IMG/VR virus record: IMGVR_UViG_3300009448_000011
Span: 32,001 to 96,000 of that record
Length of the DNA stretch: 64,000 bases
Reading direction: 5' to 3' (one strand)
DNA from: a virus
Below the pieces are notes generated by a model. The model had not been told where the DNA came from, ran no database searches, and was given only the letters and a program-made list of their open reading frames with translations. Position numbers and translations under genes: made by a program. Below, piece after piece: positions 28,994 to 50,992 of this stretch. How positions within the stretch are numbered: position 1 is the first letter of the stretch; each line of letters starts with the position of its first letter.

Positions 28994-29036
28994 AAAAAGT
29001 CAATGAAAAAAGTAAAAAAATTAATAGTTAAAAAAA

Positions 29037-29587: not shown

Positions 29588-32500
29588 TCATTTAGCGGCC
29601 CAACTAGTACCCAATTTACATTCTGCTTTAGAAGGAAAATCAGGCACTAATTTATGTAATAATTCATCCATTGCTTTTTTCATTCCTAATTCTTGTGCAG
29701 CAGCATATTCATAAGAAATATCTTGAAATTTATATTCAGGAATATAAACTTCCCCATCTTTTCTTACATTTACTACTTCACCTTGTCCAGGGATATAAGT
29801 AATACATTCATCATGAACTAAGCCTACGATATAGCCTGGAGAAGAATGTTGTTTATACTTAGTATTAAGCTGAGTAAAAAACTGATCGATATAATGTGCG
29901 GCGCGTTTTGTCATAATACTAGAAAGGCCTTGTATAATGGTATTACAACCTTTACGCATAGTAGCGCCATCATTTTCTATTCCGTGAGCATTACCTTCGC
30001 CAACGAAATAGCGTCTATTTGTTATAGGACATTGTACCCATTTTTGATATCTAGCCAAAGAACTAGTATTATCAATATAGACTTGCAATTCTGGAAATAA
30101 ATTAAAATAGTTTTTAAGAAGTTGTTCAGCAACCTTAATATCTATTTGAAGAGCGGTAGAAATTCTATTAGCACTTCCACCATAAATTACCTTAAACCCT
30201 AAATTTTCATCTAGGTTTGGACTATACCTTTTAATGTAATTATTTGACATACATTAAAACACCGTGTTATAATTAGTATAACAAAGAAACATTTTAGATA
30301 ATGGACATACAAACAGCGGCGAATTTACAAGAATTAATAGAACAAGATCCTTTAATAGAATTAATCGAAATATGGGATAAAGTTTTATACATAAGAAAAG
30401 TAAAAGGCCGAGGAAGGTTTCATACTAAAAAAAATATTACTTTGTTAAAAAGTGGAATATACATCAATACAAAATATATACTCCAAGAATACAAAAGACT
30501 TCAAAAAAAATATCACCCTGATTTAAACAAAGGAAAAAAAAATTATGTTGAAATTTCAAAAAGCATTAATCAATGGAAAGACTTATTATTTGAATGTGAC
30601 GAAAGAGAACTCAATAGAACAGTATATCAGTTACTTATTACAACATGTGGACCGCTCACATCCATTTTCAGCATTGGAAAATCAGCAGACTTTATTTGGG
30701 GGCAAGAGGCCGGATTTCTCCACATCCCTAGATTTAATTCTGAACAGGAATTCAAGGAATGGAAAATTCCCTTTAGGAATTGGGCGGAAAAACTCGATGA
30801 TTGCCGATTGCCTAGAAGTAAAAGGAAGTTCTCAGATGTTGAGCACTACGGAGTTAATGAAAGAGATCTTCCTTTTTGATGCAGCAGAAACTATTGTTCC
30901 TACTTATGATGTTTCTATGTCTGATTTTCAATCTCAATATTTTCCATTGGGGAAAGAAAGCAAGAATTATTTCAGAAGTTATGTGCAGGAAGCACTTAAT
31001 AGAGGCATCAAAGTGAAATCATTTACTTTTTGGTTTGCGGGCCCTCTAGTGTCTATTGAAGCCATCAAATTTTCTATTTATTGGAATCGCGTGATCAAAC
31101 AAATAGGTGGAATTCAAGTAGAAATCAAAGTTTTGTCTTTGGAACAATTAATTAATTACATCATTTCCAATATTCCAACAAAAAAATGGTATGTATTAAA
31201 TCAACATCCTTCTGTTTGTATGAGTAGAGCGCAGGTTGAAGCTCTAATAGAAGCTCAACTAGCCATTTTAGTATAATCTTTTAATATCTAATTATCTTTA
31301 AGTCGCCTTGTACATTAATGTATTTAGGCGTTTTTTATTATGTATTCTTAAAAGTCTCTGAACCATTTTATAAACTTTCATTTATAGCTGGCTGCTGATT
31401 GACATATAGTATTTTTTAAACTACTTAGTGTTCCAGCAATTGAGTGTTTTTTACTTCACCATAATTTACAATTTAGTGAAGCCGCAGACTTTACCACGGT
31501 CTCTTCTTGTCCATCCATTCATATCTTTTTTAGCTTCTTTAATAACATTCCATTTAGGAACAGTAGCTAATTCAGGGTACATTCCAATAGCCGAAACTAC
31601 ATGAAGATCCCCGTCAGGATTAGGATATGTTTCTTTTGTATGTGGATTAATAAGAAAGGGATTATGCACTTCGGCATCGAAAAACGCATTAATCATTCTC
31701 TCTATTTTTGCTATACAAGCAATAGCTCTTACTTCTTGCAATATAGTTTTATTCTATACTGGCACTACTCTTCACCATCTCTATTAAGTACAGGTGTTTT
31801 ACGTCAGTGCTCTACTCTTGCCCAATTAATATAATAGAATAATAGTTCTAATTAATTTGCTAGATCGGGATTAGTTTACTATCACTTTCCCCGAATTGGT
31901 AAAATATTTTTTATACTATTTCTAATATAAACGACCCTTTTTTATTGTATTTATTTGTTTGACATTCAGCCATATAAGAGATACAATAAAAAAAAGACAA
32001 AAAACAAATAAGGTATGGATGCTCAAACTTGTAGAAACCTACAAACATTAATTGATAAAGATAATAATATTGAACTCATAGAAATATGGGCCAAGGTACT
32101 TTATCTAAGAATGAAAAAAGGAAAAAACAAGTTTTGCAGTAAAAAAGGAATAACTAATTTAAGCTCAGGAATTTATTTAAACTTAACTAACTTTAAAAAT
32201 GAATACACAAAATTGCAACGAAAATATCACCCAGACAAAAATGCAAAACATTTTGAAATTTCAAAAGGTATTAATCAATGGAAAGCATTTATATTTGAAT
32301 GTGACAAACGAGAACTTAATAGAACAGAACTTAATACATTACTTGAATCATGTCCCCCCAACACATCCTTATTCTCTCTTAGAGAACCAGCAAGTTATTT
32401 ACAACAACAAGAGACCGGACTTTTCAACCACCTTGACGACATTGCCAGGCACTATTGGGCCACTGTTACGCCTAAGCAAAGAGCTGAGGCAGAAGCTAGG

Positions 32501-33147
32501 GAAGAAGAATGGCTTGCTCGTCGATGTGGTAGAAACAAAGATGGAAGTAAATACGTCGACCCTTATGAAGGAACTTGTCCCTTTTAAAGAAGATGCACAA
32601 CAATTTGTTGATTCATCTTTTAGAAAGGAACAATTTACTTTTAATGCAGAACGCGTTGTCAATTATAAATGTTACATAAGCAATTATGTGAAAGCTGTTC
32701 AACAAAAAAAAGGTAAAGTAAAACAAATTACTTTTGCTTTTGTAGCTCCAAAAATAACAGTAGATGCATATGAATTGGCGTGGATTTTAACACATAGTCC
32801 AATTTACAATAATATTGGTGGCGTTAAAATCATAGTAGAATTATATACATTAGAAGCTTTTATCGAAAAACTGATTAATATAATCCCAGCCAATAAATGG
32901 TTCATTAAAAGTTCAATTCCTTTTAATTGTGTAAATGGGAGAGATGTAGATCTTCTAGTTAAAGAAAATAGAGCTATTATTATTTAATTTATTTATTTTT
33001 TATCTTTAGTAATAAACTCAGTATATAGGTGTATACTGAGTTTCAATTTATATTTAGTTAAGCCGAGTAATCACTAATACCCACACACATACCTTTAGGC
33101 GCCGCACCTAAAGCTTTTCTTACCGTTGTTGTAATTTCATATGACAT
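29588..33147 (-). CDS. polA: Family-A DNA polymerase, C-terminal (palm/fingers) half; 3 exons 33147-33061, 31738-31475, 30190-29588 (317 aa)
   Basis: Splicing restores motif A DYSA|QEVR and motif B RDRGKVCGFT|VIYGG; motif C VHDE; NTIIQG. Confidence 0.9.
30244..30273 (+). promoter_or_regulatory. Sigma70-type promoter of cassette copy 2
   Basis: TTGACA-N18-TATAAT with TG extension, overlapping intron P3/P8 on the opposite strand. Confidence 0.8.
30301..30879 (+). CDS. Cassette copy 2 ORF A (J-domain-like)
   Basis: YKRLQKKYHPDLNKG; ends ERDLPF. Confidence 0.75.
   Translation: MDIQTAANLQELIEQDPLIELIEIWDKVLYIRKVKGRGRFHTKKNITLLKSGIYINTKYILQEYKRLQKKYHPDLNKGKKNYVEISKSINQWKDLLFECDERELNRTVYQLLITTCGPLTSIFSIGKSADFIWGQEAGFLHIPRFNSEQEFKEWKIPFRNWAEKLDDCRLPRSKRKFSDVEHYGVNERDLPF
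30545..31276 (+). CDS. Cassette copy 2 ORF B (PD-(D/E)xK endonuclease)
   Basis: KRPDFST...CLEVK. Confidence 0.75.
   Translation: MLKFQKALINGKTYYLNVTKENSIEQYISYLLQHVDRSHPFSALENQQTLFGGKRPDFSTSLDLILNRNSRNGKFPLGIGRKNSMIADCLEVKGSSQMLSTTELMKEIFLFDAAETIVPTYDVSMSDFQSQYFPLGKESKNYFRSYVQEALNRGIKVKSFTFWFAGPLVSIEAIKFSIYWNRVIKQIGGIQVEIKVLSLEQLINYIISNIPTKKWYVLNQHPSVCMSRAQVEALIEAQLAILV
31304..31336 (+). terminator. Intrinsic terminator after copy 2
   Basis: CGCCT...AGGCG followed by TTTTTT. Confidence 0.7.
31959..31987 (+). promoter_or_regulatory. Sigma70-type promoter of cassette copy 3
   Basis: TTGACA-N17-TACAAT. Confidence 0.75.
32015..32587 (+). CDS. Cassette copy 3 ORF A (J-domain-like)
   Basis: YTKLQRKYHPDKN; ends EGTCPF. 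Confidence 0.75.
   Translation: MDAQTCRNLQTLIDKDNNIELIEIWAKVLYLRMKKGKNKFCSKKGITNLSSGIYLNLTNFKNEYTKLQRKYHPDKNAKHFEISKGINQWKAFIFECDKRELNRTELNTLLESCPPNTSLFSLREPASYLQQQETGLFNHLDDIARHYWATVTPKQRAEAEAREEEWLARRCGRNKDGSKYVDPYEGTCPF
32199..32987 (+). CDS. Cassette copy 3 ORF B (PD-(D/E)xK endonuclease)
   Basis: KRPDFST...VVETK. Confidence 0.75.
   Translation: MNTQNCNENITQTKMQNILKFQKVLINGKHLYLNVTNENLIEQNLIHYLNHVPPTHPYSLLENQQVIYNNKRPDFSTTLTTLPGTIGPLLRLSKELRQKLGKKNGLLVDVVETKMEVNTSTLMKELVPFKEDAQQFVDSSFRKEQFTFNAERVVNYKCYISNYVKAVQQKKGKVKQITFAFVAPKITVDAYELAWILTHSPIYNNIGGVKIIVELYTLEAFIEKLINIIPANKWFIKSSIPFNCVNGRDVDLLVKENRAIII
33014..33043 (+). terminator. Hairpin after copy 3 (terminator candidate)
   Basis: aaactcagtata/tatactgagttt 12-bp inverted repeat. 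Confidence 0.55.
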
Positions 33148-33209
33148 ATTTAATTTTAAATTTGGTTTAATTAATGAAAAAGAATAAATAGCAATAGAAT
33201 TAAAATATT

Positions 33210-33563
33210 TTAAACAATATTATGTTTCAACAAAACAAGAATGATTTGTTTAATAATATCGCCATGACAATCATTAGGTTTGCACCAACAAGCAAGTTTA
33301 AAATCTACCCCTTTTTTTTCTAATTGAGCTAAGCGAATCAATTCATCATAAACAGAGCCTTTTTTCAAAGAATACATTTGAAGAATCCAGGCCTTATAGA
33401 GCTGTAGACTTTCTGCAAGAGTTCTATTATGTCTAACTGCATAAGGATTATTTAAAGGGCTAGCTTTTAAATTGTAATAAGCATTTTTACGGCCAATGTA
33501 GATAATATCTTCGCCAACAAATCCGTCTTTTTTCCCATTGATAATGTGCATAGAGTTGTTCAA
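33210..33563 (-). CDS. DUF4326-like protein
   Basis: IYIGR...SPLNNPY...LACWCKPNDCHGDII. Confidence 0.8.
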   Translation of the reverse strand: MNNSMHIINGKKDGFVGEDIIYIGRKNAYYNLKASPLNNPYAVRHNRTLAESLQLYKAWILQMYSLKKGSVYDELIRLAQLEKKGVDFKLACWCKPNDCHGDIIKQIILVLLKHNIV

Positions 33564-33570
33564 TTAAATA

Positions 33571-34860
33571 TCAAAATTGATGTTGATCAATAGAAATAAC
33601 AGCAAGAGTAGAAGAAACTTGTTGTAAATTAGCAGAGCCACTAGAACTCATGCGACCTGTACTAGAACCTATAGAAGAAAAACCGACATGTACGTTATTA
33701 GTAGTACTATTAATAATAGAGTTATACTTCAAACATTCAGACCAAAGTTTACTATATTTTTTATAACGTAACAAATTTTTAATTAAATTAATATGACTAT
33801 ATTTAGAAATCAAATAATTCTCATCAAATAAAGGTTCTTTTTCTTCATCAAGGGCTTCTTGTTTTAGTAGATCAAGATATAATTTTATTTCATCTGCTTG
33901 CAAGCTAGATAAAGAAGCGCCGCCTAATTTAGTCAAATAATCATTAATAAAAGAAACTAAGCCCTTATTATTATTAAGTAAAGTTTTGACTTTATCAGGA
34001 ATAACATACTTAAGTTCCCAATGACCTTGAGCATTAAGATCAGTATCAGTATAGATAGTAAAACCTAATTCATGTACTAAATAAGATCTATGAAGATTAG
34101 TTTGTTCTTCGGCATAAGAAGTAATCTTAGCTAATAGAGAAGTATCGAGACACATGCCGTAATATTCCATTTTTGCACAAATAACAGTAGCTTGCTGATC
34201 TGATTCGTATGCAAATTGTTGATGAAGAAGATCAAGTTGAGTTTTAAATAAATAATAACCTTCAATTAATATAGAATTAATAGAAGAAAGTTTAGGAGCG
34301 CCAACATCTAAAGCGGCATAACCTAATTGGCTAGTAGTTAAAGGTCGTTCACCCCAAGAACTAGTAGCTTCACTTTTATCGAGATGGATATCAAAATAAT
34401 CCCTTGCTAAATCTTTAAGACCATGGCCTCTAAATATAGAAGCTTTCATTCCTGTAGTAATGGCCAAACTTTTCATTAAAGTCAAAGAACAAACAGTATT
34501 AACGGGCCAGGATTTAAACTCGTTATAAAATTGTTTTAAATCAAATTGACTATAGTGAAGTATTTTTAATATATTTTCATTAAGCAATACTTTTGTATTA
34601 AATAAAGATTTAGCAGAAGAACTCAATAATATAAAATCTAAAATATAAGGAATAGAATGATTTATACTATTTAATTGAACTAAAGATATTTTAGAACTAT
34701 GAGGATCCAAAGCACTAGGATTTACTTTAGATAAATCAATCATAGTTTCAGTATCCAGTGCAATTTCCTTACTTTCTACACAAAAATCAATTATTGCCTC
34801 TATATCTTTATCTTCTGTTACATAATAAATATCAATTTCCGCTGTTTCTATTAATTTCAT
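33571..34860 (-). CDS. polA: Family-A DNA polymerase, N-terminal half (3'-5' exonuclease and thumb)
   Basis: ALDTET, HYSQFDL, YAALDV, MEYYGM.LD, TGRMSS..ANLQQV, then stop. Confidence 0.9.
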   Translation of the reverse strand: MKLIETAEIDIYYVTEDKDIEAIIDFCVESKEIALDTETMIDLSKVNPSALDPHSSKISLVQLNSINHSIPYILDFILLSSSAKSLFNTKVLLNENILKILHYSQFDLKQFYNEFKSWPVNTVCSLTLMKSLAITTGMKASIFRGHGLKDLARDYFDIHLDKSEATSSWGERPLTTSQLGYAALDVGAPKLSSINSILIEGYYLFKTQLDLLHQQFAYESDQQATVICAKMEYYGMCLDTSLLAKITSYAEEQTNLHRSYLVHELGFTIYTDTDLNAQGHWELKYVIPDKVKTLLNNNKGLVSFINDYLTKLGGASLSSLQADEIKLYLDLLKQEALDEEKEPLFDENYLISKYSHINLIKNLLRYKKYSKLWSECLKYNSIINSTTNNVHVGFSSIGSSTGRMSSSGSANLQQVSSTLAVISIDQHQF

Positions 34861-34922
34861 ATTAAAAAAAATATATAATTCTAATTAAATATTTAATTAG
34901 AGTATATAATATAGAATTAGGA

Positions 34923-35366
34923 TTAAGAAGACAAAGTAGAAATATCTTGTTTCAAAGATTCTATTTCAGAAGAAACAGCTAAAGAATTAAAATCAAATTC
35001 AACAGAAGAAGAAAGGTCAGGATTAGGGGAAGAATCTTGTTGAAGTTGTTGAGAGACATAAGAATCTGCATCAAAAACAGAAAAGCCAGAAGATTGATCT
35101 AGAGAATTGGGGGCAACTCTAGGAATAGAGGGGGCCTCAGTAGAAATAGTGACTTGATTTTTGTCAGTATAACGAGGTTGAAAAGGAGAATCATTAGAGG
35201 AAGAAAGAGAAGAGTTGCGAGAATATAAAGAAGATGTAGAGCTTTTAACTGCTTCTGCGGCGGTATTTAAGATACAATCAATTTGATATGTTTTCTCTAT
35301 TAATTCTTTCCGAGCAGCAACTAATTCTGAAACAGACATAGTTTTATAAGATTTCTTTTTTATCAT
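34923..35366 (-). CDS. Ser-rich hypothetical protein
   Basis: 147 aa ORF in operon order. Confidence 0.5.
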   Translation of the reverse strand: MIKKKSYKTMSVSELVAARKELIEKTYQIDCILNTAAEAVKSSTSSLYSRNSSLSSSNDSPFQPRYTDKNQVTISTEAPSIPRVAPNSLDQSSGFSVFDADSYVSQQLQQDSSPNPDLSSSVEFDFNSLAVSSEIESLKQDISTLSS

Positions 35367-35371
35367 AGGAT

Positions 35372-36466
35372 TTAAGAAAGATTTAGAATAGAATTTAATT
35401 GAAGTTGGAGATCGAGATAAGAGTCGGGATGTTCCAAATAATAGTCGTAAACTTTTTGAAGACCTGCGACTTTTTTATCTAAATGAGGAACATAGAACCA
35501 AGCACCGTGTTGTTGAATAATATTTGCATCAAGAGATAAATTAACGGTATCAGCAAAAACATCAACACCTGCTATTATAGTATCATTTCGTTTAATAGGA
35601 AAAATAAAAGGAATTTCCACTTTTTTAAAGGGGGTAGAGGTTTTATTTTTAACAGCTTGAATAGAAACAATTTGACCTATTTTTTCTTTAGCGTCTTCAA
35701 GCCAACTAACACGATTTAAATCTAATCTAACAGAACAATAATAGTGAACAGCTCTACCTCCACAAGTAGTAGATTTAGAACCATAACCAAGAAGATTCTG
35801 ACCACGTTCTTGATTAAGTAAGATAATAGAAATATTACGTTCAGCAGCAAGAGTAACTAATTGTTTAAGAGCATTACTCATTAAGCGTGCTAAAGAACCA
35901 ATCATAGTAGTACCCATTTCTTTTTTTTCATCTAGATCGCCACTAGGAACAAGAGCTGCTACAGAATCAAGAACAATTAAATTTAGTACAGGATTACCAG
36001 CACTATCTTGTAATTTTATACCTGTTCGTATAGCCTCTAGAGCTTCTTCTGCAGAATTAGGTGCAAAGGTACAAAGTTTATCTAAATTAACGCCACAATA
36101 TATCATAAAGTCAGGATCTATAGCATGTTCAGCATCGACCCACATACAAAGTTTGTTTTGTTTTTGATAACTAGAAACAATATGGGAAGCCAAAGTACTT
36201 TTACCAACACTAGTATCTCCAAAAATCTCTATAATTCTGCCTACGGGGAGACCGCCGCCCAAAACGTTATTTAAACTTAAACAATCTAATTTAACTCTAC
36301 CGACGCTTTCAAATTTATTTTTATTACGAAATCCAGCATATTGAGTACCAAACTTTTTACTAAGAGTTTTATCAAATAATTCTAAAGATTCAAAGTCAGT
36401 TTCAGGTAGATCAGTTTCAAGTAGATCAGTTTCAAGTAGATCAGTTTCAGGTAGATTTTTTTTCAT
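35372..36466 (-). CDS. recA: RecA/UvsX recombinase
   Basis: GGGLPVGRIIEIFGDTSVGKST, DAEHA, LDSVAALVP, KNKTSTPF. Confidence 0.95.
   Translation of the reverse strand: MKKNLPETDLLETDLLETDLPETDFESLELFDKTLSKKFGTQYAGFRNKNKFESVGRVKLDCLSLNNVLGGGLPVGRIIEIFGDTSVGKSTLASHIVSSYQKQNKLCMWVDAEHAIDPDFMIYCGVNLDKLCTFAPNSAEEALEAIRTGIKLQDSAGNPVLNLIVLDSVAALVPSGDLDEKKEMGTTMIGSLARLMSNALKQLVTLAAERNISIILLNQERGQNLLGYGSKSTTCGGRAVHYYCSVRLDLNRVSWLEDAKEKIGQIVSIQAVKNKTSTPFKKVEIPFIFPIKRNDTIIAGVDVFADTVNLSLDANIIQQHGAWFYVPHLDKKVAGLQKVYDYYLEHPDSYLDLQLQLNSILNLS
36396..36455. repeat. 15-bp tandem repeat x4 in the RecA N-terminus
   Basis: (tcagtttcaRgtaga)4 encoding L(P/L)ETD. Confidence 0.9.
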
Positions 36467-37229
36467 CTTTAAAATTAGTAATAGAGTTATATAAATAAAT
36501 TAATTCAAAAAAAGTAGATTCAGACATACCAACATAGGAACCGACTTTATTTGTATATATATAGCAAAAATTACTACCAAAACTATTATCAAAAGACTGA
36601 GTAGTAATTTTGGGCAATTCTTGTAGAGCAAAAAGGTAAGAAGAAGAAGGAGAAGAAGAAGTTAAAGTAAATAGAAATTTATAGATGCCCTGAGAAAAAG
36701 ATTGAAAATGGTGTATAAGTAATAAAGGAAAAGTAGTTAAAAAAGTAGTCCAAATAGTAATAAAAGTTTTATAATCTAAATAAAAATAAGAGTTATGAGT
36801 AAGGACTAAATGAATAATAATAAGTTTAATATTCTGAGAATAAGATTCTTTGTATTCTTTTAAAGAAGGTAAAAAAGAAGAAGTAGATTTAAATCTACAT
36901 TTAATTTCCACTTTAAGTTTACCTATATTGGATAAATAGAGAGAAGCATCGCCATCGCCATTAATAGAACCACTACCTCTAGTAGGATTAAAAAAAGGTA
37001 AATTTTTTATAACAACTAATTCTTTAGTCTTACCCAATTTACTATAAGAGACTGCTTTAGATTTTTGAACAATATTTGCGGGATGTTTATTAATATCTTT
37101 ATTAATAGGAGAATATAGTAAATACTTACTTTTTAAATTAGCTTTACATTCATGACATCTAGTTTCATAGTTTTTACAATTCAAAAAATATTCAGCGGGA
37201 CAGTTCTTTAATATAATTTCTTCTAACAT
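36447..37229 (-). CDS. PD-(D/E)xK resolvase-like nuclease
   Basis: RGSGSINGDGDA...VEIK; N-terminal Cys cluster. Confidence 0.55.
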   Translation of the reverse strand: MLEEIILKNCPAEYFLNCKNYETRCHECKANLKSKYLLYSPINKDINKHPANIVQKSKAVSYSKLGKTKELVVIKNLPFFNPTRGSGSINGDGDASLYLSNIGKLKVEIKCRFKSTSSFLPSLKEYKESYSQNIKLIIIHLVLTHNSYFYLDYKTFITIWTTFLTTFPLLLIHHFQSFSQGIYKFLFTLTSSSPSSSYLFALQELPKITTQSFDNSFGSNFCYIYTNKVGSYVGMSESTFFELIYLYNSITNFKDEKKST

Positions 37230-37754
37230 ATGACTACTAATTTAAATTTAAAATATTCTATTACATTTAGTGCAGCCACAAAAGTAATAGACAATAATGC
37301 TGAATTTTCATCTGAGGATATAGCGCAACAACAATTACAATTCAATAGCAATAGTTTAATTAATTCTGCGGCAAAAAGAATAGAGATACAATTATACCCT
37401 ACACCTTATTTAACTCCGTCTATACATAGAGTATATGATTTAGATTTAAATTCTTTAAAAATTGGGTTTCTGAGAATGATTTATATTAAATCAGAAACCC
37501 AATTTTTATATTCAACAGCAGACAGTTTAATTAATTTAGGAACTGCACCTAGAGAATTAACACAATGTTATGTAATAGATAAAGGATTCATGCCTTCACC
37601 TACTATATTCACCCCAGATATTCCTTATGCTAAATTTATTAGATTAATCAATCCTCTTGAAATTAATGGAGGAGGTTCAGGAAATAGTGAGGCAGATATT
37701 CCTATACTAGTTAGTTTATTAATTGTGTCTACGCCTGCTACTCCCCTTATTTAA
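37230..37754 (+). CDS. Hypothetical protein (possibly structural)
   Basis: 174 aa beta-rich ORF on the + strand. Confidence 0.5.
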   Translation: MTTNLNLKYSITFSAATKVIDNNAEFSSEDIAQQQLQFNSNSLINSAAKRIEIQLYPTPYLTPSIHRVYDLDLNSLKIGFLRMIYIKSETQFLYSTADSLINLGTAPRELTQCYVIDKGFMPSPTIFTPDIPYAKFIRLINPLEINGGGSGNSEADIPILVSLLIVSTPATPLI

Positions 37755-38041
37755 ATGGTAGGTTTATAAACAACAGGTTCTGCCGCCTCTTTATCACGTA
37801 AACCTACATAAATAAAAGGATTGCCTTTAAAAGAGGTAGATTTAATATATTCTCTATAGCCTGCGGGAACTATAAAACTAACTTCTAGATTAGTATTAGG
37901 TCTCATTTTTTTACCATTTAACTCTTTAAATTCACCACTAATAATAGTCAAAGTTTTATTATTATAGGGATTTTGTAGTTCAGTTCTAATAATCATATCT
38001 TCGTCACCAGGCAAAGAAAAATCAAAATCATCAATATCCAT
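37751..38041 (-). CDS. Hypothetical protein
   Basis: 96 aa ORF. Confidence 0.5.
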   Translation of the reverse strand: MDIDDFDFSLPGDEDMIIRTELQNPYNNKTLTIISGEFKELNGKKMRPNTNLEVSFIVPAGYREYIKSTSFKGNPFIYVGLRDKEAAEPVVYKPTI

Positions 38042-38042
38042 A

Positions 38043-38468
38043 TCAACTTCTCCTAATATTATTTAATTCACTAAGTAGTAATTTCATAAAAACGGGGTTA
38101 TTTTTTCTAAAATCATCTGTGTATTCTTCTAAATTAACACAAGCTAAATCTTTAAAATACGCAATATTTTTATTAGTTTGAATTACTGCAATGTTGCTCC
38201 AATCTTTTAAAACAACAGTATTAAAAGCAACATTATATCTTTCTTCATAAGCTAAACGATAATAAGTTTCTGTAGATAAACAAAAAGCTATTTCTTTTGT
38301 TAGTTTATGACAACTAATTTTACGCATAGCTTGTGTTAATGAATATATAGGAATAAGAGAAGGATTTCTTTTACGAGTAAAGAACCCTTTTTTTATTAAC
38401 TTTAATAATAACTTTTCTTTGGTATTTTTTATATGTGGCACATTTAGTAGCATAAGAATTAACTTCAC
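38043..38468 (-). CDS. Hypothetical protein
   Basis: 141 aa ORF overlapping the DHFR 3' end; start uncertain. Confidence 0.4.
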   Translation of the reverse strand: MKLILMLLNVPHIKNTKEKLLLKLIKKGFFTRKRNPSLIPIYSLTQAMRKISCHKLTKEIAFCLSTETYYRLAYEERYNVAFNTVVLKDWSNIAVIQTNKNIAYFKDLACVNLEEYTDDFRKNNPVFMKLLLSELNNIRRS

Positions 38469-42572: not shown

Positions 42573-43165
42573 TGCATAAAACAATTAAATATTATAATGA
42601 TAAATTTGATATTGATGGAATACAATTTCCAAATTCAATAGTTAAAACAACTAAACCGTCTTTTGCCTGCGAAGATGAAATAAAAGAATTATTTTATAAA
42701 GAAGCGTCAGGTCAAAATCAAATAGTGTTTAAAGATGATTCTATAAAAAATATTTCTGATTTTGACCCTTTTTATAATGAATTAATATTATTAGCTTCTT
42801 ATTTTGAATTTGAATATAAAGAAATTTTATTTAAAGAAACTCAAATAATTATAGATAAACCGCTTCCTATTGTAGATTTTAAAGAACTTTTTGCGCACGA
42901 CATTACTGCAAAAAAACAAAGTATTAAGATAAAAATAGTAGAAGAATTAATAGGAAAAGAAATACTAACAGATAAATTTTATTTTAATATCCTAGATAGA
43001 TTGAAAAAAACTTTATTAATTCAAAGTGATTGGACTCAACTACCCGATGTTCAATCTTCTTTTTCTGATGAAGAAAAACAATCCTGGATTATGTATAGGT
43101 TATCGTTACGTAATTTAGATAATGTTACAGATCCTTTAAAAGCAAGATTGCCTAAATACCCTTAA
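42572..43165 (+). CDS. Tail fibre assembly chaperone-like protein
   Basis: LLIQSDWTQLPDV...W..YR..LR. Confidence 0.75.
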   Translation: MHKTIKYYNDKFDIDGIQFPNSIVKTTKPSFACEDEIKELFYKEASGQNQIVFKDDSIKNISDFDPFYNELILLASYFEFEYKEILFKETQIIIDKPLPIVDFKELFAHDITAKKQSIKIKIVEELIGKEILTDKFYFNILDRLKKTLLIQSDWTQLPDVQSSFSDEEKQSWIMYRLSLRNLDNVTDPLKARLPKYP

Positions 43166-43176
43166 TTTCAACTTCA

Positions 43177-45543
43177 TTAAAACATTTTGTGAAGATTTAA
43201 TTTGTGTTCCATTAAATTAATATAAAATAAAAAATCTTTTTCTTCTATACTAATTTCCGATTGAAAATAATTTTTAACACGGTAGTATTTAAGAAAAGGA
43301 AGTTTAGTTAAATAATCCTGACATTCATTATATATATATATACATTCTTTTTGTATTTTTAAGGGTACTTTAAGGTCAACAAAAAGTTCATTATATCCTT
43401 TTTGTTGTAAACTTTTCTTCATTAATTGTAAATCATTATTAATTAATAAAGCATAGCTTTCTAATTCTTTATTGTTATTTAAATATTTTAGTGCTCCCTG
43501 ATATTGATTATTTAAGTAACCAAATAAACTATTTTTTTCAGACAAGTTTTTATAATTAAAAAGAAGAAAAACTTCTTGATGATTTTGGAAGTAATAGTAA
43601 ATAAAAAGATTTAGGCCTAAGAGATTTAAATTAGATTGATGAATTAAATAATCTTGTTTAATAACGTCTAACAAATTAACCCAATTAGAGCTAGTGAAAT
43701 TCTTAGTTAAAGTAGGGATATAGTAAATATTAGATATAGAAATTTTTTTATAAATTAAATAGTTATTTAATCTTTCTATAAAATTTTGGATAACTTCTGG
43801 ATATCTAGTAGTAATACCTAAATTTAGAAAAGGCACTAAATTCTGGGATAATTCTTCTTCATTTAAAAAATAACAAGTGCGAAGGGGAGCTTTTAACACT
43901 TTTATTTCTTTACACCACGCGCCTAAACCTCGAGCTCTTTCTCTTTGTTTAGTTTTGTGTAATTGTAATATAGTAAATACATTTGTATTAGAAGGTTTTT
44001 TTTTAACAAAAGGATTATCTTCATTAAATTCTTTAATAATATTAGATAAATATACTGTATCTAAAGTTCTAAGAATCCATGGTTGTACTTTATCTAAATC
44101 TACAGAAGAAACACAAATAAAATTAGTGTCACTTAATTGTTCCCTATTTTTTTGGATATAAGCTTTTAAATATTTTTTATAATTATTATATTTACTATCT
44201 TGTACACATAATATATACTTATTTTTTCCTGTATAAATAGTACTAGTTTGTATTTTATTTAATACATCAATTTCTTTAGATTTTAATTTAGACCAGGATT
44301 TATCTAATTTATAGACTTTAAAAGTATCAGGGAGTTCTTTTTCGATAAAAATAGCATAAAACTTATCAAAAGAAAGGTTTTCAGGTTGCCAAGTTAATAA
44401 ACTTAAAAATTTTGTACGTAATATATTAGGATAATTTACATAAGAAATAGTTGCGGAAATAAAGTCAGGGTTATGAATTAAATCAATACGCAAATATTTA
44501 TAAAATTCTATAAAAAAAAGATATAAATATTGATAAAGTTCTAAGCAAGTTTTTTTAGTATATTGTAAATTTTCTCTAGAGGCAGAAATATCTAAAGTAC
44601 CTATAGGGACGTTAATCTCAAAAGAATACAAACATAAAACGTCAATAAATGTAAAAAACAACTCAGTATTTTTTAGATTGTCTATGTAATAAGGACAATT
44701 AGTAGTTATATAATATAAAACTTCGGGTGTAATATTACTAAAAGAACTTTTTAATAATTCTAAATCTAATTTATAAGGAATATCATATATAACGACTACG
44801 TGTTTACAACCGTGTTTAGCTTCCCAATAATTAGTATCTACTAATAATAACGACCATAGTTTACCAAAATAGTTATAAGTATTTGTTTTTAAAGTTAAAC
44901 GAGCTTCTAAAGTTTTATTTAAAAAATTAAACTTACTTTTAGTATATGTTAAATACAAAGATAAGCTTTTGAAAATATGAGTTAAATCTTTTGTATTAAA
45001 AGGAACACTAACTTTTGTTCCAGGTAAAAACTCAATAATATTACTATCATTTTCTTCTAATAAAGTTAAAGAGCCTACCCGAGACTCATCAATATATTGA
45101 ACCCATTTTCTATAAATATTTATATTATTTTCTACAGTATAAGTTTCAATCCAAAAATGATCAGAATAAGCTAAAGCAGATTTACTACCTAAGCCCCAAC
45201 CACCTTGAAGATTATTATCTTCTCTTTTATCAGATTTTCCCATTTTAGAATACACATTAAAAATAATATCTTTATCCATAGAGTGGCCATAATCTCTTAT
45301 AGAAAAGATATTAGACCCAAAGAGATATTCAATATTAATATCTATGGGAAGATCTATGTTAGCTTTTGTATGCGCGTCTACTGCATTGCTATAGAGTTCT
45401 CGTACAAAAGAAGAAATAGGATCTGTATAAATATTATTCCTCAATAAATTCATAATAGTTGAGGTATTTTCTAAATCTAGACTCATTTGTGTAGAAAGTT
45501 TCCCTTCAAAATGTCTAGACGTATTAACATTATTTAATTTCAT
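43177..45543 (-). CDS. rIIA-like protein (GHKL/Hsp90-type ATPase N-terminus)
   Basis: IYTDPI..VRELYSNAVDAH, IRDYG, GGWGLGSKS. Confidence 0.75.
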   Translation of the reverse strand: MKLNNVNTSRHFEGKLSTQMSLDLENTSTIMNLLRNNIYTDPISSFVRELYSNAVDAHTKANIDLPIDINIEYLFGSNIFSIRDYGHSMDKDIIFNVYSKMGKSDKREDNNLQGGWGLGSKSALAYSDHFWIETYTVENNINIYRKWVQYIDESRVGSLTLLEENDSNIIEFLPGTKVSVPFNTKDLTHIFKSLSLYLTYTKSKFNFLNKTLEARLTLKTNTYNYFGKLWSLLLVDTNYWEAKHGCKHVVVIYDIPYKLDLELLKSSFSNITPEVLYYITTNCPYYIDNLKNTELFFTFIDVLCLYSFEINVPIGTLDISASRENLQYTKKTCLELYQYLYLFFIEFYKYLRIDLIHNPDFISATISYVNYPNILRTKFLSLLTWQPENLSFDKFYAIFIEKELPDTFKVYKLDKSWSKLKSKEIDVLNKIQTSTIYTGKNKYILCVQDSKYNNYKKYLKAYIQKNREQLSDTNFICVSSVDLDKVQPWILRTLDTVYLSNIIKEFNEDNPFVKKKPSNTNVFTILQLHKTKQRERARGLGAWCKEIKVLKAPLRTCYFLNEEELSQNLVPFLNLGITTRYPEVIQNFIERLNNYLIYKKISISNIYYIPTLTKNFTSSNWVNLLDVIKQDYLIHQSNLNLLGLNLFIYYYFQNHQEVFLLFNYKNLSEKNSLFGYLNNQYQGALKYLNNNKELESYALLINNDLQLMKKSLQQKGYNELFVDLKVPLKIQKECIYIYNECQDYLTKLPFLKYYRVKNYFQSEISIEEKDFLFYINLMEHKLNLHKMF

Positions 45544-45599
45544 TTGTAAAATTTGTTAAAAATATTAAAGAAGGTTTCAATACGACCTTCCTTAATAAT

Positions 45600-47972
45600 T
45601 TAAGTTTTAATAATATATAGTGCTTTACCGGCAGTTTTAGGAACTTCCACTGTTGTATTAATGACCCACAATAAATTAGTATTTTTAATTTGGGAAGCAG
45701 TAGGAAAAACACAATAACCATCTGAAGCAATAATGCTTAAAATAGGGGTATATTTTTTAATACCGTAAAGTAGAGGAGTTACCATATCAGTGCCCCCACC
45801 ACCTTCAGCGCGAATCCACCCGTTTTTAATTTTATCTAAAAAGTTAGCGCCATCAGCTTTAACAATATATTCACTACGAACTTTTGTATCTGCAAAAATC
45901 AAAGCAATTTCTACATTAGTTTGTGTTTGAACATTTTGTATTTCTGTACAAAACATAGTTAATTCTTCTTCATTAAAACAAGAACCACTAGTATCTATTA
46001 TTACTAACATTTTATCTAGACCCTTTTTATTTAAAAGACCAGGCATATAAACATTAGGGTTAGGTAAAGAGCCCATTCTTCTTGCAGGTTTACTCCACGT
46101 TTGTTCTAAAACAGGCATACACCTTTTAATTAAATATTTACGTAATTCTACATGCCAAGAAATTTGAGGTTTATAAACATCAGGATTAACTTTACCTAAT
46201 ATAGAATTGTTAGAATTAAGTGATTGAGCTTTAGCCCTATTATATCTTTGTGTCCATTGAAAATCATCTATTTGTGAAGAAGTAGAATCTTCTTTATTGG
46301 CTTCTTTTATATCATCGCCTGCAAATAATGTATGTTTGCTTGCTAATTTTTTAGATAATTCTTCTACTTCTTTTTCTAATTTTTCTAATACACTTTCTTC
46401 ATTATTAGAAGAATCAGGAGGTTTTTTACTATTATTAGCCTTGCCCCCTTTTTTTTTATTTTGGGACTTTGACTGATTTTCTACTTGTTTTTGTAAATTA
46501 TCTCGTAATGTTTTAATTAAATATTCATATAAACTTTCTGAGGTCCAGTGACTAAAATGTTTTCTTTCACTTTGCGCAATATTACACTCAGAATATATAC
46601 TCTCTAAATTAACTACTTCTTTTTTATTTAAATATAAATAGGAGGGTGATCCTACTTTTTGTTCATCTTTAAATCCAATACTTTCATTTATAATTGCATC
46701 ACAATTATGAGTCACTACATTACTTGCAAGATATATGTGCGTTTCAGTTTCAATGTTATACACTAATCCTTCATAATATTGCTTAGAAATATGTTTAATA
46801 GGAGTTAATATATAATCCTTAGTAGTTTTCCATATTTGACTATTATTTACATTTCTAGAAGATTTAGTAGTTTTAATATATGACAGTAAATAGCCACTTT
46901 CTACATAATCAATAGTTAAAAATTTATTATGTTTTGCAAATAATAATTGTAATTGTCTAGCTAATAAATTTGAAGATGTCCACGCAGTTAATTTATTTTT
47001 ATTTCGGTGCCCTTCCCCATCAAAATAACCTTTAATAAAACTAGCAGTTAAATTATTAGGTAAATCTAAAAGCCAATTCGGCAATTCTGTTTTTTCTTTT
47101 ATTAAAATTGAATTACAAATAGATACAATATAATAATAGTAGGAAAGAAAAGTAGAAGAAATTAAGGCTAAAGAATTAAAATAAGATGAGATTCGATTAT
47201 TTGGAATTAAATCAAAAGAACCTTTAGCCAGAAAATAGCCTATGGAATATAATAAATCATTTGTAAGGAGAAAGTTAGAAGGAAAAGGAGGGAGAATAGG
47301 AGGAATTAAAGAAGAATGAAGTTTAGGGATACATAAATAATCTTGAGTAATATTTAACTCTTGTGCTGTTTTCCAACTATAATTAATTTGGTTATTAGAG
47401 TTAAAGTTAGCAACGTAAAAAGGATGATCTTGGGTAGCTTCAATATTCAAACAACCAGTGGGTTTAATAGTATACATATCATCTTGATATATATTTTCCA
47501 TAGTGTTTGTAATAGTGCCGCCAACTAAAGTGGTATCGCCTATGATTAAATCTTCTATATTCTTGAAACCTTCTAAGGTAAGAATAGGTTCTCCTGGTTT
47601 AAAACAAGCAATATTATATAAATTGCTAATTCTTTTTTTACCACGTATACAATGTCTAAATACAATATGAAGCATTTCATGAATAATAACTGCACATTGT
47701 ACAGGAATTTCTAATGAAAAAAATCTATCAGCAAAAAACATTTCATCGCCATTAGTATAAGCCACCTGTTCAAAATAAGGGTGAGAATCAGGGACTACAG
47801 AACTAGGAACAAAAGTCAATAAGCCTTGTAGAGAATTATCTTCACATATAATACGAGCTCTTAAATTATGTAAAATCCTAATTTTTTTATCATAAGAAAT
47901 ATTAGAAGGAGGAAAACTATCTGCTAATTTTTCATCAGACATAGAAAATAAAGAAGTTTCAATCATAGTCAA
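45600..47972 (-). CDS. HExxH metallopeptidase-vWA protein (DUF2201-like) containing an intein
   Basis: HEMLH, NIA|CDAIIN after intein removal, DTSGS MIDAS, GGGGTD, SDG. Confidence 0.85.
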   Translation of the reverse strand: MTMIETSLFSMSDEKLADSFPPSNISYDKKIRILHNLRARIICEDNSLQGLLTFVPSSVVPDSHPYFEQVAYTNGDEMFFADRFFSLEIPVQCAVIIHEMLHIVFRHCIRGKKRISNLYNIACFKPGEPILTLEGFKNIEDLIIGDTTLVGGTITNTMENIYQDDMYTIKPTGCLNIEATQDHPFYVANFNSNNQINYSWKTAQELNITQDYLCIPKLHSSLIPPILPPFPSNFLLTNDLLYSIGYFLAKGSFDLIPNNRISSYFNSLALISSTFLSYYYYIVSICNSILIKEKTELPNWLLDLPNNLTASFIKGYFDGEGHRNKNKLTAWTSSNLLARQLQLLFAKHNKFLTIDYVESGYLLSYIKTTKSSRNVNNSQIWKTTKDYILTPIKHISKQYYEGLVYNIETETHIYLASNVVTHNCDAIINESIGFKDEQKVGSPSYLYLNKKEVVNLESIYSECNIAQSERKHFSHWTSESLYEYLIKTLRDNLQKQVENQSKSQNKKKGGKANNSKKPPDSSNNEESVLEKLEKEVEELSKKLASKHTLFAGDDIKEANKEDSTSSQIDDFQWTQRYNRAKAQSLNSNNSILGKVNPDVYKPQISWHVELRKYLIKRCMPVLEQTWSKPARRMGSLPNPNVYMPGLLNKKGLDKMLVIIDTSGSCFNEEELTMFCTEIQNVQTQTNVEIALIFADTKVRSEYIVKADGANFLDKIKNGWIRAEGGGGTDMVTPLLYGIKKYTPILSIIASDGYCVFPTASQIKNTNLLWVINTTVEVPKTAGKALYIIKT
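46704..47606 (-). mobile_element. Intein (301 aa) with LAGLIDADG-type domain
   Basis: Starts CFKPG, ATQDHPF, FIKGYFDGEG, ends VTHN|C. Confidence 0.9.
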
Positions 47973-48372
47973 TTCCTAATAATTCTGTTAAAGCAAACTG
48001 AGCATCAAATAATTGAATAGTGTTAGGTCTACTAAACTCAAATAAATATTGTTGAAATACGCCTAAAGATTTTTCATAATATTTTTCAACAATAGCATTT
48101 ACAATAAGTTTTTCATCAAATAAAAAAGTAATTTCTTGGTATTGAGCTGCGGTGCCTAAATAGACAGTAAATCTAATAGTAGGATCTACTACATCAACTC
48201 CCTGACTATTTTGATAAGTAGGAAAAAATATCAAAACAGCAAATTTTACTATATCTTCGTGTGTAAAATTACGAGAAGATAGAATTTCATACCCTCGATT
48301 AGTAAAACTATAGTAAGCCAATAATTCTGCTATTACTTTTAATTTGTTTTTATATTCTAAGTTTTTTGTCAC
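47959..48372 (-). CDS. Hypothetical protein in the MoxR-vWA operon
   Basis: 137 aa ORF. Confidence 0.5.
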   Translation of the reverse strand: MTKNLEYKNKLKVIAELLAYYSFTNRGYEILSSRNFTHEDIVKFAVLIFFPTYQNSQGVDVVDPTIRFTVYLGTAAQYQEITFLFDEKLIVNAIVEKYYEKSLGVFQQYLFEFSRPNTIQLFDAQFALTELLGIDYD

Positions 48373-48402
48373 GGGGAGTTTCTCCTTATATAATTTTAAA
48401 AA

Positions 48403-50992
48403 TTAAACAGATATTAAATCACTAAAAGCTTGCATATGTTCTTTGCGCATTGCTTTATATGCCTCAGACTTACCAATTTTGTAGGGTAGTTTTTTATTAT
48501 CTATTTTTTGTGCTTTACTAAATAGAGTAATCACACTTGTCACTAAAATTTCTTTACGAGGTAAATTATCTTCAATACTTCCTAATACATTAAATACATA
48601 ACATGCCGCTATAAATTCTTCTTCTGTTTTACAATACGACGGTAATGAATAACTTAATCCATATAAACCAGTTATTTTAGTAGGAAGAATATTTTTAATT
48701 AAGCGATCATCTTGGAGGACACCTAGACGAATATATTCAGACATAGGGGCAAGGCTAGCTAATTCTTCAATAACAAAAAAGAATTCATGAGCAGTAGCGG
48801 CGCCTAAAAGACCTGGTAAAATAATTTTTAATTGTTGTTCATCAGTAATTTTCTCCATAATATTGGAACATTTTTCCCATGAACGGCTAGAAGGATTAAT
48901 TTTATCATCATTATCTGCGACTGATTTAAAACCTTCGTCAAGAAATTCAGGACGAGCTCTTAAAAAAGCTTTAATAGAAGGAATAATAGGGCGGCCGTTT
49001 TCTGCGCGATGGGCTTCCCATTTTAACCAAGCATTTACAGAAGTCATTACGTCAAAATGAATAAAACGATCTGAGATAGCACTAGATAACTCATAGGCTA
49101 TAGCACCATCTTCTACTCTATTTCCTGCTGCAATAATCATTACATTATCAGGAACTTTATATTTATCAATTTTTCTATCTAATATTAATTCGTACATTAA
49201 TATACCTTTAATTTTCATTAAAGAACGGAATACATTTTAATCTTTACTATATTTATATAGTATTAAGACTTGGACACTCTAGGTAAAATTATAGTCTGTT
49301 TAACTTAAGACATCATTTACTACTCTCTACATTATTATTAAACATTACTTTAATAATTAACACGGGATTACCTTATAGTTTCCTACTTAGGTTTCCCCGT
49401 TAGCCTAATCTCTATTTGTTCTTTTTTGATTAAACCCTATTGACTTATTAAAACCAATACATTATAATATATTTAAATACACACACATTTACAAATAAGA
49501 AATTCAAGTGGACATACAAAGTTGTAAAAATCTTCAAGCATTAATTGATAAAGACAATAATATTGAACTCATAGAAATATGGGCTAATATATTGTATTTA
49601 AGAATGCGAAAAGGAAAAAACAAATTTTGTAGTAAAAAAAGAATAACTAATTTAAAAGAAGGTGTTTATTTAAATATCTATACTTTTTCTAAAAATGAAT
49701 ACAAACAATTACAGCAAAAATATCACCCTGACACCAGCTCAAAATATTTACACATTTCAAAAAGTCTTAATCAATGGAAAGATTTATTATCTAGATGTGA
49801 CTACAGAGTCCAAAATAGAAGCATATATCTTGACATTGCTGCAACATATTCCAACAACCCATCCATATTCTCTATTGAAAAATCAATTAGAATATTCAGT
49901 ATGGCAAAAGAGGCCCGACTTTTCGACGGACTACTCGAGGATACCGCAGAGTGGGCAGAAGGATGTGATGAAGCCTGGCTCGCTCAACAAAGAGCTGAGA
50001 GCCAATCTAGGTGGAAAGAATGGTCTAACTGGCAACGTGGTCGAGATAAAGAAGGAAATAAAATTAGAGACACTTATGACGGAACTCTTCCTTTTTAATA
50101 CAGAAGAAGAAGTATTTCTTGCTCCTCTCGGTAAAACTCACGATCAATTTCTAAAAGAAAATCCTATAGAAACTTCTTCATCTAAAATGTATATACTTGC
50201 CACTAAACTTCATGCACAAAAATTAGGATTTAAACTAAAAAGATTAAATATGACTTTTGTGGCGCCTCTTGTTTCTAACAAAGCATTACAATATGAACAA
50301 TATCATAACAAAGCTATTAAAAATATAGGAGGAATTGCAGTAGATTTAAAAGTATTTACCTTAGAACAATTCATTAATGAATTATTTACTTTAATTCCCG
50401 ACAGTAAATGGTACATAAAAGATAATCATATTCCTTTTATCGCCTTGTCAAAATCTAAAGTAGAAATATTACAAGAAAATAATTTAGCCGTTATAATGTA
50501 ATCATATTCATTTTTATTTAAATCTCTCTTATTGTGTTATTGCTTTAAGAGAGATTTTTATTTGGTACGCAATAGTTTGCCCAGTTTTACTTATATATTT
50601 CTATATAAGGTGCCTACGAATATTTAAGCACTTGCTTGTAAACGCGGTTCAGCCGCACTTAATTCATCTAGAAAAATAATACAACCTTCTTTACCCCAAC
50701 TAGCAATCATTTCTTCTGTTGGTAAAAATTCAGGTAAATAATAAATAGTTTTTTTACTTTCTTGATGTAGATAAGGAAGTCCTGTTAAATCAGTACTATC
50801 CATTCTAGTAAGTCTTAAATCAATTAGCCCCCAATTTAATTCTGTAGCTATTTGTCTTACAATATCAGATTTACCACAACCAGGTTGTCCATGTATATAT
50901 ACAGCATTTTTACGTAAGTCTGTATCTTTTGCCATTGTTAAAATACAATTTTTAATTAAATCAGGCGTAGTGGGAATAGTATTAATTGTCAT
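48403..50992 (-). CDS. MoxR-type AAA+ ATPase; 2 exons 50992-50627 and 49194-48403 (385 aa)
   Basis: GQPGCGKS, DLTGLP, FLDELSAA, QASA|YELILDR after splicing, AAGN, DRF. Confidence 0.9.
49440..49468 (+). promoter_or_regulatory. Sigma70-type promoter of cassette copy 4
   Basis: TTGACT-N17-TATAAT. Confidence 0.75.
49508..50098 (+). CDS. Cassette copy 4 ORF A (J-domain-like)
   Basis: YKQLQQKYHPD; ends DGTLPF; GTG start. Confidence 0.75.
   Translation: MDIQSCKNLQALIDKDNNIELIEIWANILYLRMRKGKNKFCSKKRITNLKEGVYLNIYTFSKNEYKQLQQKYHPDTSSKYLHISKSLNQWKDLLSRCDYRVQNRSIYLDIAATYSNNPSIFSIEKSIRIFSMAKEARLFDGLLEDTAEWAEGCDEAWLAQQRAESQSRWKEWSNWQRGRDKEGNKIRDTYDGTLPF
49695..50501 (+). CDS. Cassette copy 4 ORF B (PD-(D/E)xK endonuclease)
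   Basis: KRPDFST...VVEIK. Confidence 0.75.
   Translation: MNTNNYSKNITLTPAQNIYTFQKVLINGKIYYLDVTTESKIEAYILTLLQHIPTTHPYSLLKNQLEYSVWQKRPDFSTDYSRIPQSGQKDVMKPGSLNKELRANLGGKNGLTGNVVEIKKEIKLETLMTELFLFNTEEEVFLAPLGKTHDQFLKENPIETSSSKMYILATKLHAQKLGFKLKRLNMTFVAPLVSNKALQYEQYHNKAIKNIGGIAVDLKVFTLEQFINELFTLIPDSKWYIKDNHIPFIALSKSKVEILQENNLAVIM
50520..50563 (+). terminator. Hairpin and T-tract after copy 4
   Basis: aaatctctctta/taagagagattt followed by ttattt. Confidence 0.6.

Follow-up and report, generated by a model that had tools for sequence, protein, structure and literature searches.

How ribozymes and endonuclease genes come to be combined in mobile introns has so far been inferred mostly from single cases. 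Cyanophage Pf-WMP3 has in polA an IA2 intron that encodes the endonuclease I-PfoP3I (PMC3428280). Free-standing endonuclease genes, such as seg and mob of T4-like phages and cyanophage F-CphI, are self-expressed between genes, T4 segD being an antisense example, and in "collaborative homing" free-standing endonuclease genes recombine into pre-existing introns that lack an endonuclease (PMC2988022). Antisense homing endonuclease genes with internal promoters have been described in nuclear rDNA group I introns, namely Dir.S956-2 and Dsq.L2066/I-DsqI (PMC9548176). Here we analyse a 64,000-nt stretch of viral DNA, called the window below, which comprises bases 32001-96000 of the linear virus record IMGVR_UViG_3300009448_000011 (105.7 kb, ~62% complete); coordinates are positions in the window. 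A cassette of two overlapping genes occurs in it four times: once free-standing between genes and three times inside, and antisense to, group I introns, at a different ribozyme position in each. That one cassette family occupies three ribozyme positions and one intergenic site was the central claim of a preliminary description of this DNA, and it is borne out.

Repeat and open reading frame (ORF) searches find exactly four copies of the cassette in the 105.7-kb record, all on the plus strand. Each is ~1.1 kb long and consists of a sigma70-like promoter, ORF A, ORF B, which overlaps ORF A, and a hairpin. Pairwise DNA identity among the four is 64-71%, with c2 and c3 the closest pair at 71%. Homology between copies starts at the promoter, ~55 nt 5' of ORF A, and stops at the ORF B stop codon, and the hairpin 3' of each copy is its own and not homologous to the others. 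The free-standing copy, c0, occupies 25781-26825 (+), with the promoter box TTGACA at 25781, ORF A running from an ATG at 25835 (or 25796) to 26419, and ORF B at 26079-26825. Copy c1 (30244-31330, +) lies in polA intron 2 and has its promoter at 30244-30273, ORF A at 30301-30879, ORF B at 30545-31276 and a hairpin at 31304-31330; its promoter, TTGACA-18-TATAAT with an extended -10, is a 12/12 match. Copy c2 (31959-33043, +), in polA intron 1, has an 11/12 promoter at 31959-31987, ORF A at 32015-32587, ORF B at 32199-32987 and a terminator hairpin with a 13-bp stem at 33014-33043. The top two promoter matches in 29500-33700 are precisely the promoters of c1 and c2. Copy c3 (49440-50555, +), in the intron of an AAA/MoxR-like ATPase gene, has promoter boxes TTGACT (49440-45) and TATAAT (49463-68), ORF A at 49508-50098 with a GTG start, ORF B at 49695-50501 and a hairpin at 50522-50555 that was also picked up as a terminator-like stem.

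Two small features adjoin c2. A perfect 13-bp inverted repeat at 31938-31994 surrounds its promoter, with the -10 box in one arm and the -35 box in the loop; it sits just upstream, in the intron sense, of the intron 1 guide and appears as a spurious miRNA-like Rfam hairpin. At 33093-33113 (+), within the first exon of the polA C-half, a G+C-rich stem of 7 bp is followed by a run rich in T; this hairpin might terminate antisense transcripts extending beyond the c2 terminator.

The interrupted genes are on the minus strand. Here polA consists of two genes, divided at the position that also separates gp180 from gp178 in Microcystis phage Ma-LMM01. The N-half (34860-33571), with its own stop codon, holds the 3'-5' exonuclease and the start of the polymerase domain (Pfam; phrog_31382 over its full length, E 4.9e-57). 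A DUF4326 gene (33563-33210, minus strand; PF14216, E 1.5e-13) lies between the halves and is not intronic. The C-half begins with a 29-codon exon (MSYEITTTVRKALGAAPKGMCVGISDYSA, 33147-33061, ATG at 33147) that was missed by the ORF lists and aligns to the N-terminus of Ma-LMM01 gp178. Exon 2 (31738-31475, QEVRAIA...GKVCGFT) follows from its frame and junctions, and exon 3 (30190-29588), which starts VIYGGSA, from a match to Pfam DNA_pol_A positions 214-342 and from P10 pairing. Exon 1 of the ATPase (50992-50627) runs from Walker A to ...FLDELSAAEPRLQASA and matches the N-terminal half only of Pfam AAA, AAA_5 and bpMoxR; exon 2 (49194-48403, YELILDRKI...) is placed by P10 pairing and the spliced reading. 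With junctions at 33061|31738 and 31475|30190, the spliced C-half product of 317 aa aligns end to end with gp178 (320 aa) at E 1e-29 with no gaps at the junctions, and splicing restores both motif A (D-Y-S-A-Q-E-V-R) and the O-helix (R-D-R-G-K-V-C-G-F-T-V-I-Y-G-G). Joined at 50627|49194, the ATPase reads continuously through Walker B, from ...FLDELSAAEPRLQASA into YELILDRKI..., and on into the remaining domain. Two further candidates were rejected. An additional intron holding the DUF4326 ORF after "...NLQQV" is ruled out because Ma-LMM01 shares the same two-gene split and because the C-half opens with a 29-codon exon that supplies its own ATG, and the N-half tail "AVISIDQHQF" fails as motif A because no U/G splice junction gives the correct D-to-E spacing.

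On their sequence features the three gaps are real group I introns, whose splicing we infer. All are on the minus strand: polA intron 1 (33060-31739, 1322 nt), polA intron 2 (31474-30191, 1284 nt) and the MoxR intron (50626-49195, 1432 nt), which without their cassettes measure ~237, 196-220 and 308-316 nt, respectively. Each 5' exon ends in a U paired to a G of the internal guide sequence (IGS), each intron ends in G (31739, 30191 and 49195), and a stop codon follows each 5' splice site immediately or two codons on. A descriptor scan of the whole record for the P and Q elements, used instead of a MAFFT alignment of the cores that misplaced P4 in introns 1 and 2, returns exactly these three introns and no convincing fourth. 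Searches with the covariance model RF00028 gave no match in the whole window at the gathering score, in stretches of 3.5 kb and 1.6 kb at E<=10, or in the whole record; local matches, on the minus strand, came only from searches of 150-260 nt, and one further narrow search added nothing. None of the three introns reaches the gathering score of 50 bits, the best local match, in intron 2, being 25.6 bits; the 1.1-kb insert splits each core, and the model has R/P7 5' unpaired.

The cassette sits elsewhere in each ribozyme. Just 16 nt separate the 5' splice site of intron 1 from the cassette terminator. The 5' strand of P1 is at 33065-61, and the guide candidates, 31936-32, followed directly by P2 (31931-23/31918-10, with a GAAA loop), or alternatively 31971-66, all lie within or downstream of the cassette, which therefore occupies the P1 loop (L1), where the preliminary description had put it. 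The remainder of the ribozyme follows: P3 (31904-899/31802-797), P4 (31894-89/31869-65), P7 (31810-06/31766-62), P8 (31796-93/31776-73) and P9 (31760-54/31746-40).

The order in intron 2 is different. P1 (31481-31475, with the IGS at 31460-31454; 8 bp), the 5' strand of P3 (31450-44), P4 (31438-34/31397-93) with the rest of P4-P6, and R (31364-53) precede the cassette, and P3' (30262-56), P8 (30255-50/30238-33), S (30230-19) and P9 with its GAAA loop come after it. P3' (GUGUUUU) pairs over 7 bp with AAAACAC at 31450-44, and P10 is 8 bp long (GUAAUU with AAUUAU). The RF00028 match (E 5.5e-5, model positions 60-147) covers P4-P6 and GGUUCAGAGACU, and its alignment ends at the P7 5' strand (position 147), exactly where the cassette starts. 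Helix coordinates and alignment thus agree with the earlier placement between P7 5' and P3', a region that in IA introns is the site of P7.1/P7.2. A weaker alternative P3' (5 bp, all A/U) just before the cassette would put the cassette in J3/8. The segment 30233-30273 has a double use: its plus strand encodes the c1 promoter, whose -35 box and spacer are the reverse complement of L8, P8 5' and P3' on the minus strand.

In the MoxR intron P1 (50631-27, IGS 50614-10; 5 bp), the P10 strand (50620-15; 7 bp, UACGAA with UUCGUA) and P2 (50609-02/50597-90, GAAA loop) lie before the cassette (50631-50590), and P4-P6 (from 49400) after it. The downstream part consists of P4 (49400-395/49366-62), P5 (49391-71), P6 (49356-35), P7 (GAGUA 49325-21/UAUUC 49232-28), a P7.1 hairpin (49309-292), P8 (49270-39) and P9 (49223-06, GAAA-type loop), and RF00028 matches its P4-P6 with 15.8 bits (E 0.07). 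Fitting the 3' half, difficult at first, took an alignment with intron 2 and with introns from Staphylococcus phage SpP and Enterococcus phage VRE9_3; the register of S and P9 comes from those phage introns. A P7 formed by ACAGACUAUAA (49299-49289) and AGUCU (49270-66) was discarded, since it leaves no room for P3' and P8 and the alignment with the Staphylococcus and Enterococcus phage introns points to GAGUA/UAUUC. The RF00028 alignments of the MoxR intron and intron 1 begin at model positions 60 and 42, downstream of the cassette. Copy c0, as the preliminary description held, is intergenic and has no intron core: it is 40 nt from the start of ORF 24568-25740 (-) and 84 nt from the stop of ORF 26910-27383 (-), both complete, the descriptor scan finds no P/Q core around it, and there is no room for a ribozyme.

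The ribozymes share an overall architecture, and their cores have diverged in sequence. Compared with shuffled sequences, the cores of introns 1 and 2 show no similarity (z 0.0), those of intron 1 and the MoxR intron a z of 3.8, and those of intron 2 and the MoxR intron a z of 2.4. Two of them have relatives in other phages. The MoxR P4-P6 is ~80% identical to introns of Staphylococcus phage SpP (DNA polymerase/polA) and Enterococcus phage VRE9_3, and the core of intron 2 is 74% identical to the rIIA intron of the crAss-like phage cr116_1; a blastn comparison of the intron 1 core with phages gave nothing meaningful. The SpP, VRE9_3 and cr116_1 introns carry unrelated endonuclease genes on the sense strand, which lie downstream of P4-P6 in the SpP and VRE9_3 introns and upstream of P4 in that of cr116_1, and core and cargo therefore associate independently. 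Phage VRE9_3 also has a second group I-like P4-P6 element (L003:2990-3060, AAUUGCUGGGAAA...AAUCAGCAGCC), which resembles that of polA intron 2 and lies just before an HNH endonuclease gene.

The cargos have a history of their own. ORF A and ORF B have ~20 and 18 homologues, respectively, all metagenomic, and one 282-kb contig holds five copies of ORF A. In a tree of ORF A the free-standing c0 and the intronic c1 fall in one clade with 97/100 support: c0 groups with P0007, then with P0009, P0012 and c1, whereas c2 groups with P0008, and c3 with P0010 and P0013. Since the copies have closer relatives in other metagenomic phages than in each other, their lineages predate this phage, and this together with their 64-71% identity makes the insertion events old. 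The picture of a snapshot of a transition, as first proposed, is therefore too strong, and a direction from free-standing to intron-encoded cannot be read from these data any more than its reverse.

ORF B is predicted to encode a PD-(D/E)xK nuclease of 243-268 aa. The nearest structural neighbours of its model (pLDDT 85.6) are AF1548 (Z 8.1), the FokI cleavage domain (Z 7.9) and NucS (Z 7.6), with Can2, BspD6I and EcoRII further down a list dominated by PD-(D/E)xK nucleases. E21, D57 and an E-x-K motif are invariant in all full-length members of the family, in a layout with the Glu on the first helix, Arg-Pro-Asp at the start of a strand, and hydrophobic-Glu-x-Lys on the next strand. It is only this predicted fold that suggests a homing-endonuclease function for the cassette.

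ORF A, of ~190 aa, carries in its sequence a J-domain signature. Conservation is high and the model confident over the first ~100 residues, beyond which the confidence is low. His-Pro-Asp (HPD; H72, P73, D74) is invariant in 22 family members, and in the model helices 60-70 and 80-98 flank the HPD loop. The family profile matches 45 sequences of the Protein Data Bank (PDB) at E<=1, every one from a J-domain protein (best E 5.5e-6), with the alignment spanning only helix II-HPD-helix III (profile positions 59-101); in place of J-domain helix I the modelled N-terminal part is beta-rich. A single ORF A sequence scores 24.4 bits against Pfam DnaJ, under the cut-off of 27.8, and fold searches with ORF A returned matches only to its low-confidence C-terminal helix. 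The ORF A protein may perhaps recruit the host Hsp70 to the nuclease.

The overlap of the two genes looks like true dual coding by overprinting. ORF B begins inside ORF A in the +1 frame, and the overlap spans 111-134 codons (26079-26419 in c0, 30545-30879 in c1, 32199-32587 in c2 and 49695-50098 in c3). Both frames appear to be real, since they are stop-free across it in all four copies, whereas off-frame stops occur at rates of 0.08 and 0.15 per codon elsewhere in the genome and are abundant in the non-overlapping parts of the same cassettes. The codon-position pattern within the overlap is that of ORF B, and the portion of ORF A that lies there is modelled at low confidence. The arrangement can be explained without invoking a +1 frameshift of the RF2 type at the stop codon of ORF A (CCU UUU UGA/UAA): the position of the stop follows from an invariant F-[DNK] of ORF B, which starts with an ATG of its own and is annotated at full length in relatives.

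We put the probability at roughly 60% that the cassette is a selfish element of the homing-endonuclease type that inserted separately into the three introns and is tolerated between genes. Its distribution, in three introns within motifs of replication-type genes and at one intergenic site, is that of such a selfish gene. That the three insertions were independent is, we infer, the best reading, because the positions differ, because introns 1 and 2 are unrelated in sequence, and because relatives of two of the cores bear other sense-strand cargos at other positions. The ancestral hosts would have been ordinary small phage group I ribozymes, each entered separately by the cassette: in the P1 loop of intron 1, in the P7-P3' region of intron 2, and between P2 and the P3-P4 core of the MoxR intron. 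The nuclease would cleave alleles that lack the cassette, and repair would then copy the cassette into them. With its own promoter and terminator the cassette brings its expression signals along and could thus survive wherever insertion is harmless; c1, c2 and c3 would be removed from the host mRNA by splicing, and c0 sits between genes. The host polymerase would transcribe the cassette from the opposite strand, so that the intron RNA would hold only its untranslated complement, and the stop codon near each 5' splice site would halt ribosomes that enter the intron. A more specific proposal, which we offer tentatively and would not yet bet on, is a hitherto undescribed two-protein homing system in which a J-domain protein that recruits Hsp70 acts with the PD-(D/E)xK nuclease, both encoded in a self-promoted antisense cassette housed in tolerant intron loops or between genes.

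Several observations weigh against this reading. All copies represent old, divergent lineages, and there is no sign that any of them moved recently. The closest pair, c2 and c3, is in the most similar introns, intron 1 and the MoxR intron, as co-descent would give, and the comparison of cassette and core relationships is for that reason not a clean success for independent invasions, although with three taxa such congruence is expected by chance in 1 case in 3. No allele that lacks the cassette or the intron was found in the collections scanned or in contigs of the source sample, which drop rare variants. Intron 1 is the least secure of the three structures: its P1 has only 5-6 bp, it has no P10, and its RF00028 alignment agrees in register with a manual fold but, at 8.5 bits (E 9.5), is not significant. 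The P3 of the MoxR intron is ambiguous between two pairings, GUAAAA 50590-85/UUUUAC 49288-83, which puts the cassette in J3/4, and UUAGG 49408-04/CCUAG 49283-79, which puts it in J2/3. The second is probably correct, since it leaves a normal 3-nt J3/4 (CUA), as in related introns, and since an insert of 1.2 kb would be poorly accommodated in J3/4; the MoxR cassette is thus in a third distinct position, as first described, but probably not between P3 5' and P4. The structural Z of 6-8 for ORF B is in the range that the tool calls middling, and by sequence ORF B matches no recognised homing-endonuclease family, whether LAGLIDADG, GIY-YIG, HNH, His-Cys box, EDxHD or I-Ssp6803I-like (Pfam, PHROG, PDB at E<=1).

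The congruence of c2/c3 with intron 1/MoxR is also what would be expected if a single ancestral intron already bore the cassette, intron-plus-cassette units spread, and the positions shifted later near the 5' end; a change of target by intron 1 or the MoxR intron, for instance, could have led to the recruitment of a new guide and P2 beyond the cassette. In both of these introns an AU-rich P2 with a GAAA loop directly follows the guide, and the sole difference is that the guide-P2 module comes after the cassette in intron 1 and before it in the MoxR intron. We nevertheless regard such shared descent as unlikely. The cassette of intron 2 lies beyond the catalytic core, after P7 5', and its intron has no similarity to intron 1, which means that two events or more are required in any case; introns related to these cores hold other endonuclease genes elsewhere, and agreement among three taxa has a 1 in 3 chance of arising. 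The earlier claim of independent invasions of separate introns therefore stands on differing positions, on the unrelatedness of introns 1 and 2 and on the independent cargos, and is qualified by the congruent pair.

Equally improbable, in our judgement, is that the cassette is a useful or addictive phage module, serving host takeover, anti-defence or competitor exclusion, which was duplicated and is merely tolerated in introns and intergenic DNA. The intact frames and catalytic motif in 4/4 copies, despite deep divergence, argue for selection on function, but homing endonucleases under ongoing homing likewise stay intact. ORF B lacks a match to a known homing-endonuclease family, homing endonucleases are not known to have a J-domain partner or a long, conserved dual-coding overlap, and several copies per genome are present in another large contig too, all of which would suit a phage module; yet no match to a defence or toxin family was found in Pfam or PHROGs (the padloc library was not searched), and a spread over three self-splicing introns, all in conserved genes of replication type, and one intergenic location is classic for homing endonuclease genes. 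That the gaps are not introns at all, and that the polA C-half and the ATPase are genes in pieces making separate polypeptides after cassette insertion, is scarcely credible: polA is genuinely split once, into the N- and C-halves, as in Ma-LMM01, and the piece 30250-29588 has an apparent ATG, but that ATG is the reverse complement of the cassette -35 box, and a plausible start codon is missing from the middle piece of the C-half. Motif A (D-Y-S-A | Q-E-V-R) and the O-helix (G-K-V-C-G-F-T | V-I-Y-G-G) are each cut in two by a break, and the third break comes directly behind Walker B. Every gap shows U.G in its P1, ends in G and has the P/Q/R/S elements, and two of the gaps have covariance-model matches.

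The record that contains these elements, from an uncultivated phage, is AT-rich (GC 26-37%) and comes from a groundwater metagenome; among public sequencing runs only this probable source DNA run was found to contain it, and no RNA run. The closest cultured phages are Microcystis Ma-LMM01-like, at ~32% protein identity; no close relative of the virus was found in the viral, metagenome and genome collections scanned, and queries with the cassette, polA and the ATPase retrieved no related locus from them. Between c0 and polA there is a TnpB-like gene (27645-28907, +; OrfB_IS605 plus a Cas12f1-like TNB domain), where contigs from the source sample are interrupted and variant copies appear, in keeping with a repeated mobile element. 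Next to it, one contig of the probable source run joins 28993 to 29500 and omits the 506 bp of 28994-29499, which contain an ORF for a signal peptide-like protein of 140 aa (29037-29459). The word depth over this segment is ~1-2, compared with 9-11 elsewhere, and together with the skipping contig this marks it as an insertion/deletion polymorphism in the population.

With a single genome that has the same cargo family at three sites within ribozymes and at one between genes, and with related cores that hold other cargos elsewhere, the invasion model becomes directly testable. If the two-protein homing system proposed above is real, the cassettes would be a natural series showing repeated, independent association of introns with an endonuclease, and would give phage and bacterial introns their first example of an antisense endonuclease cargo; we know of no other, and none surfaced in a limited literature search. 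The cargo itself is unusual, consisting of a PD-(D/E)xK nuclease without a known family, a J-domain partner and a dual-coding overlap of >110 codons, as is a promoter that shares DNA with the ribozyme helices P3'/P8.

The closest precedent for the fold is I-Ssp6803I, the PD-(D/E)xK homing endonuclease of a cyanobacterial tRNA-fMet group I intron, which is an intron-associated endonuclease with a restriction-enzyme-like fold, as predicted for ORF B. It is not among the top structural neighbours of ORF B, however, and ORF B, which has no sequence match to solved chains, is larger (~245 aa), antisense and accompanied by a partner gene. For orientation the precedents are Dir.S956-2 and Dsq.L2066, whose endonuclease genes are also opposite the ribozyme strand and in a peripheral helix. 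These are eukaryotic His-Cys box genes in rRNA introns, which rely on RNA polymerase II, spliceosomal introns and polyadenylation, whereas the cassette has a bacterial-type promoter and terminator and lies in phage protein-coding genes.

In its self-contained promoter and terminator the cassette resembles free-standing endonuclease genes (PMC2988022), and c0, between genes, is placed like seg, mob and F-CphI. It differs from these in nuclease family and in the coexistence of free-standing and intron-borne members in one genome, and any cutting of intron insertion sites by the cassette copies would be putative. Finally, T4 td/I-TevI, SPO1 polA/I-HmuI and Pf-WMP3 polA IA2/I-PfoP3I are likewise small group I introns in motifs of replication-type genes, and phage mobile introns have their endonuclease gene in a peripheral part of the ribozyme, as here. 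In those systems the nuclease is of the GIY-YIG or HNH type, whereas here it is predicted to be a PD-(D/E)xK enzyme, the cargo is antisense with its own promoter and terminator and comprises two overlapping genes, and, unlike in known phage mobile introns, one cargo family is found at three ribozyme positions in one genome.

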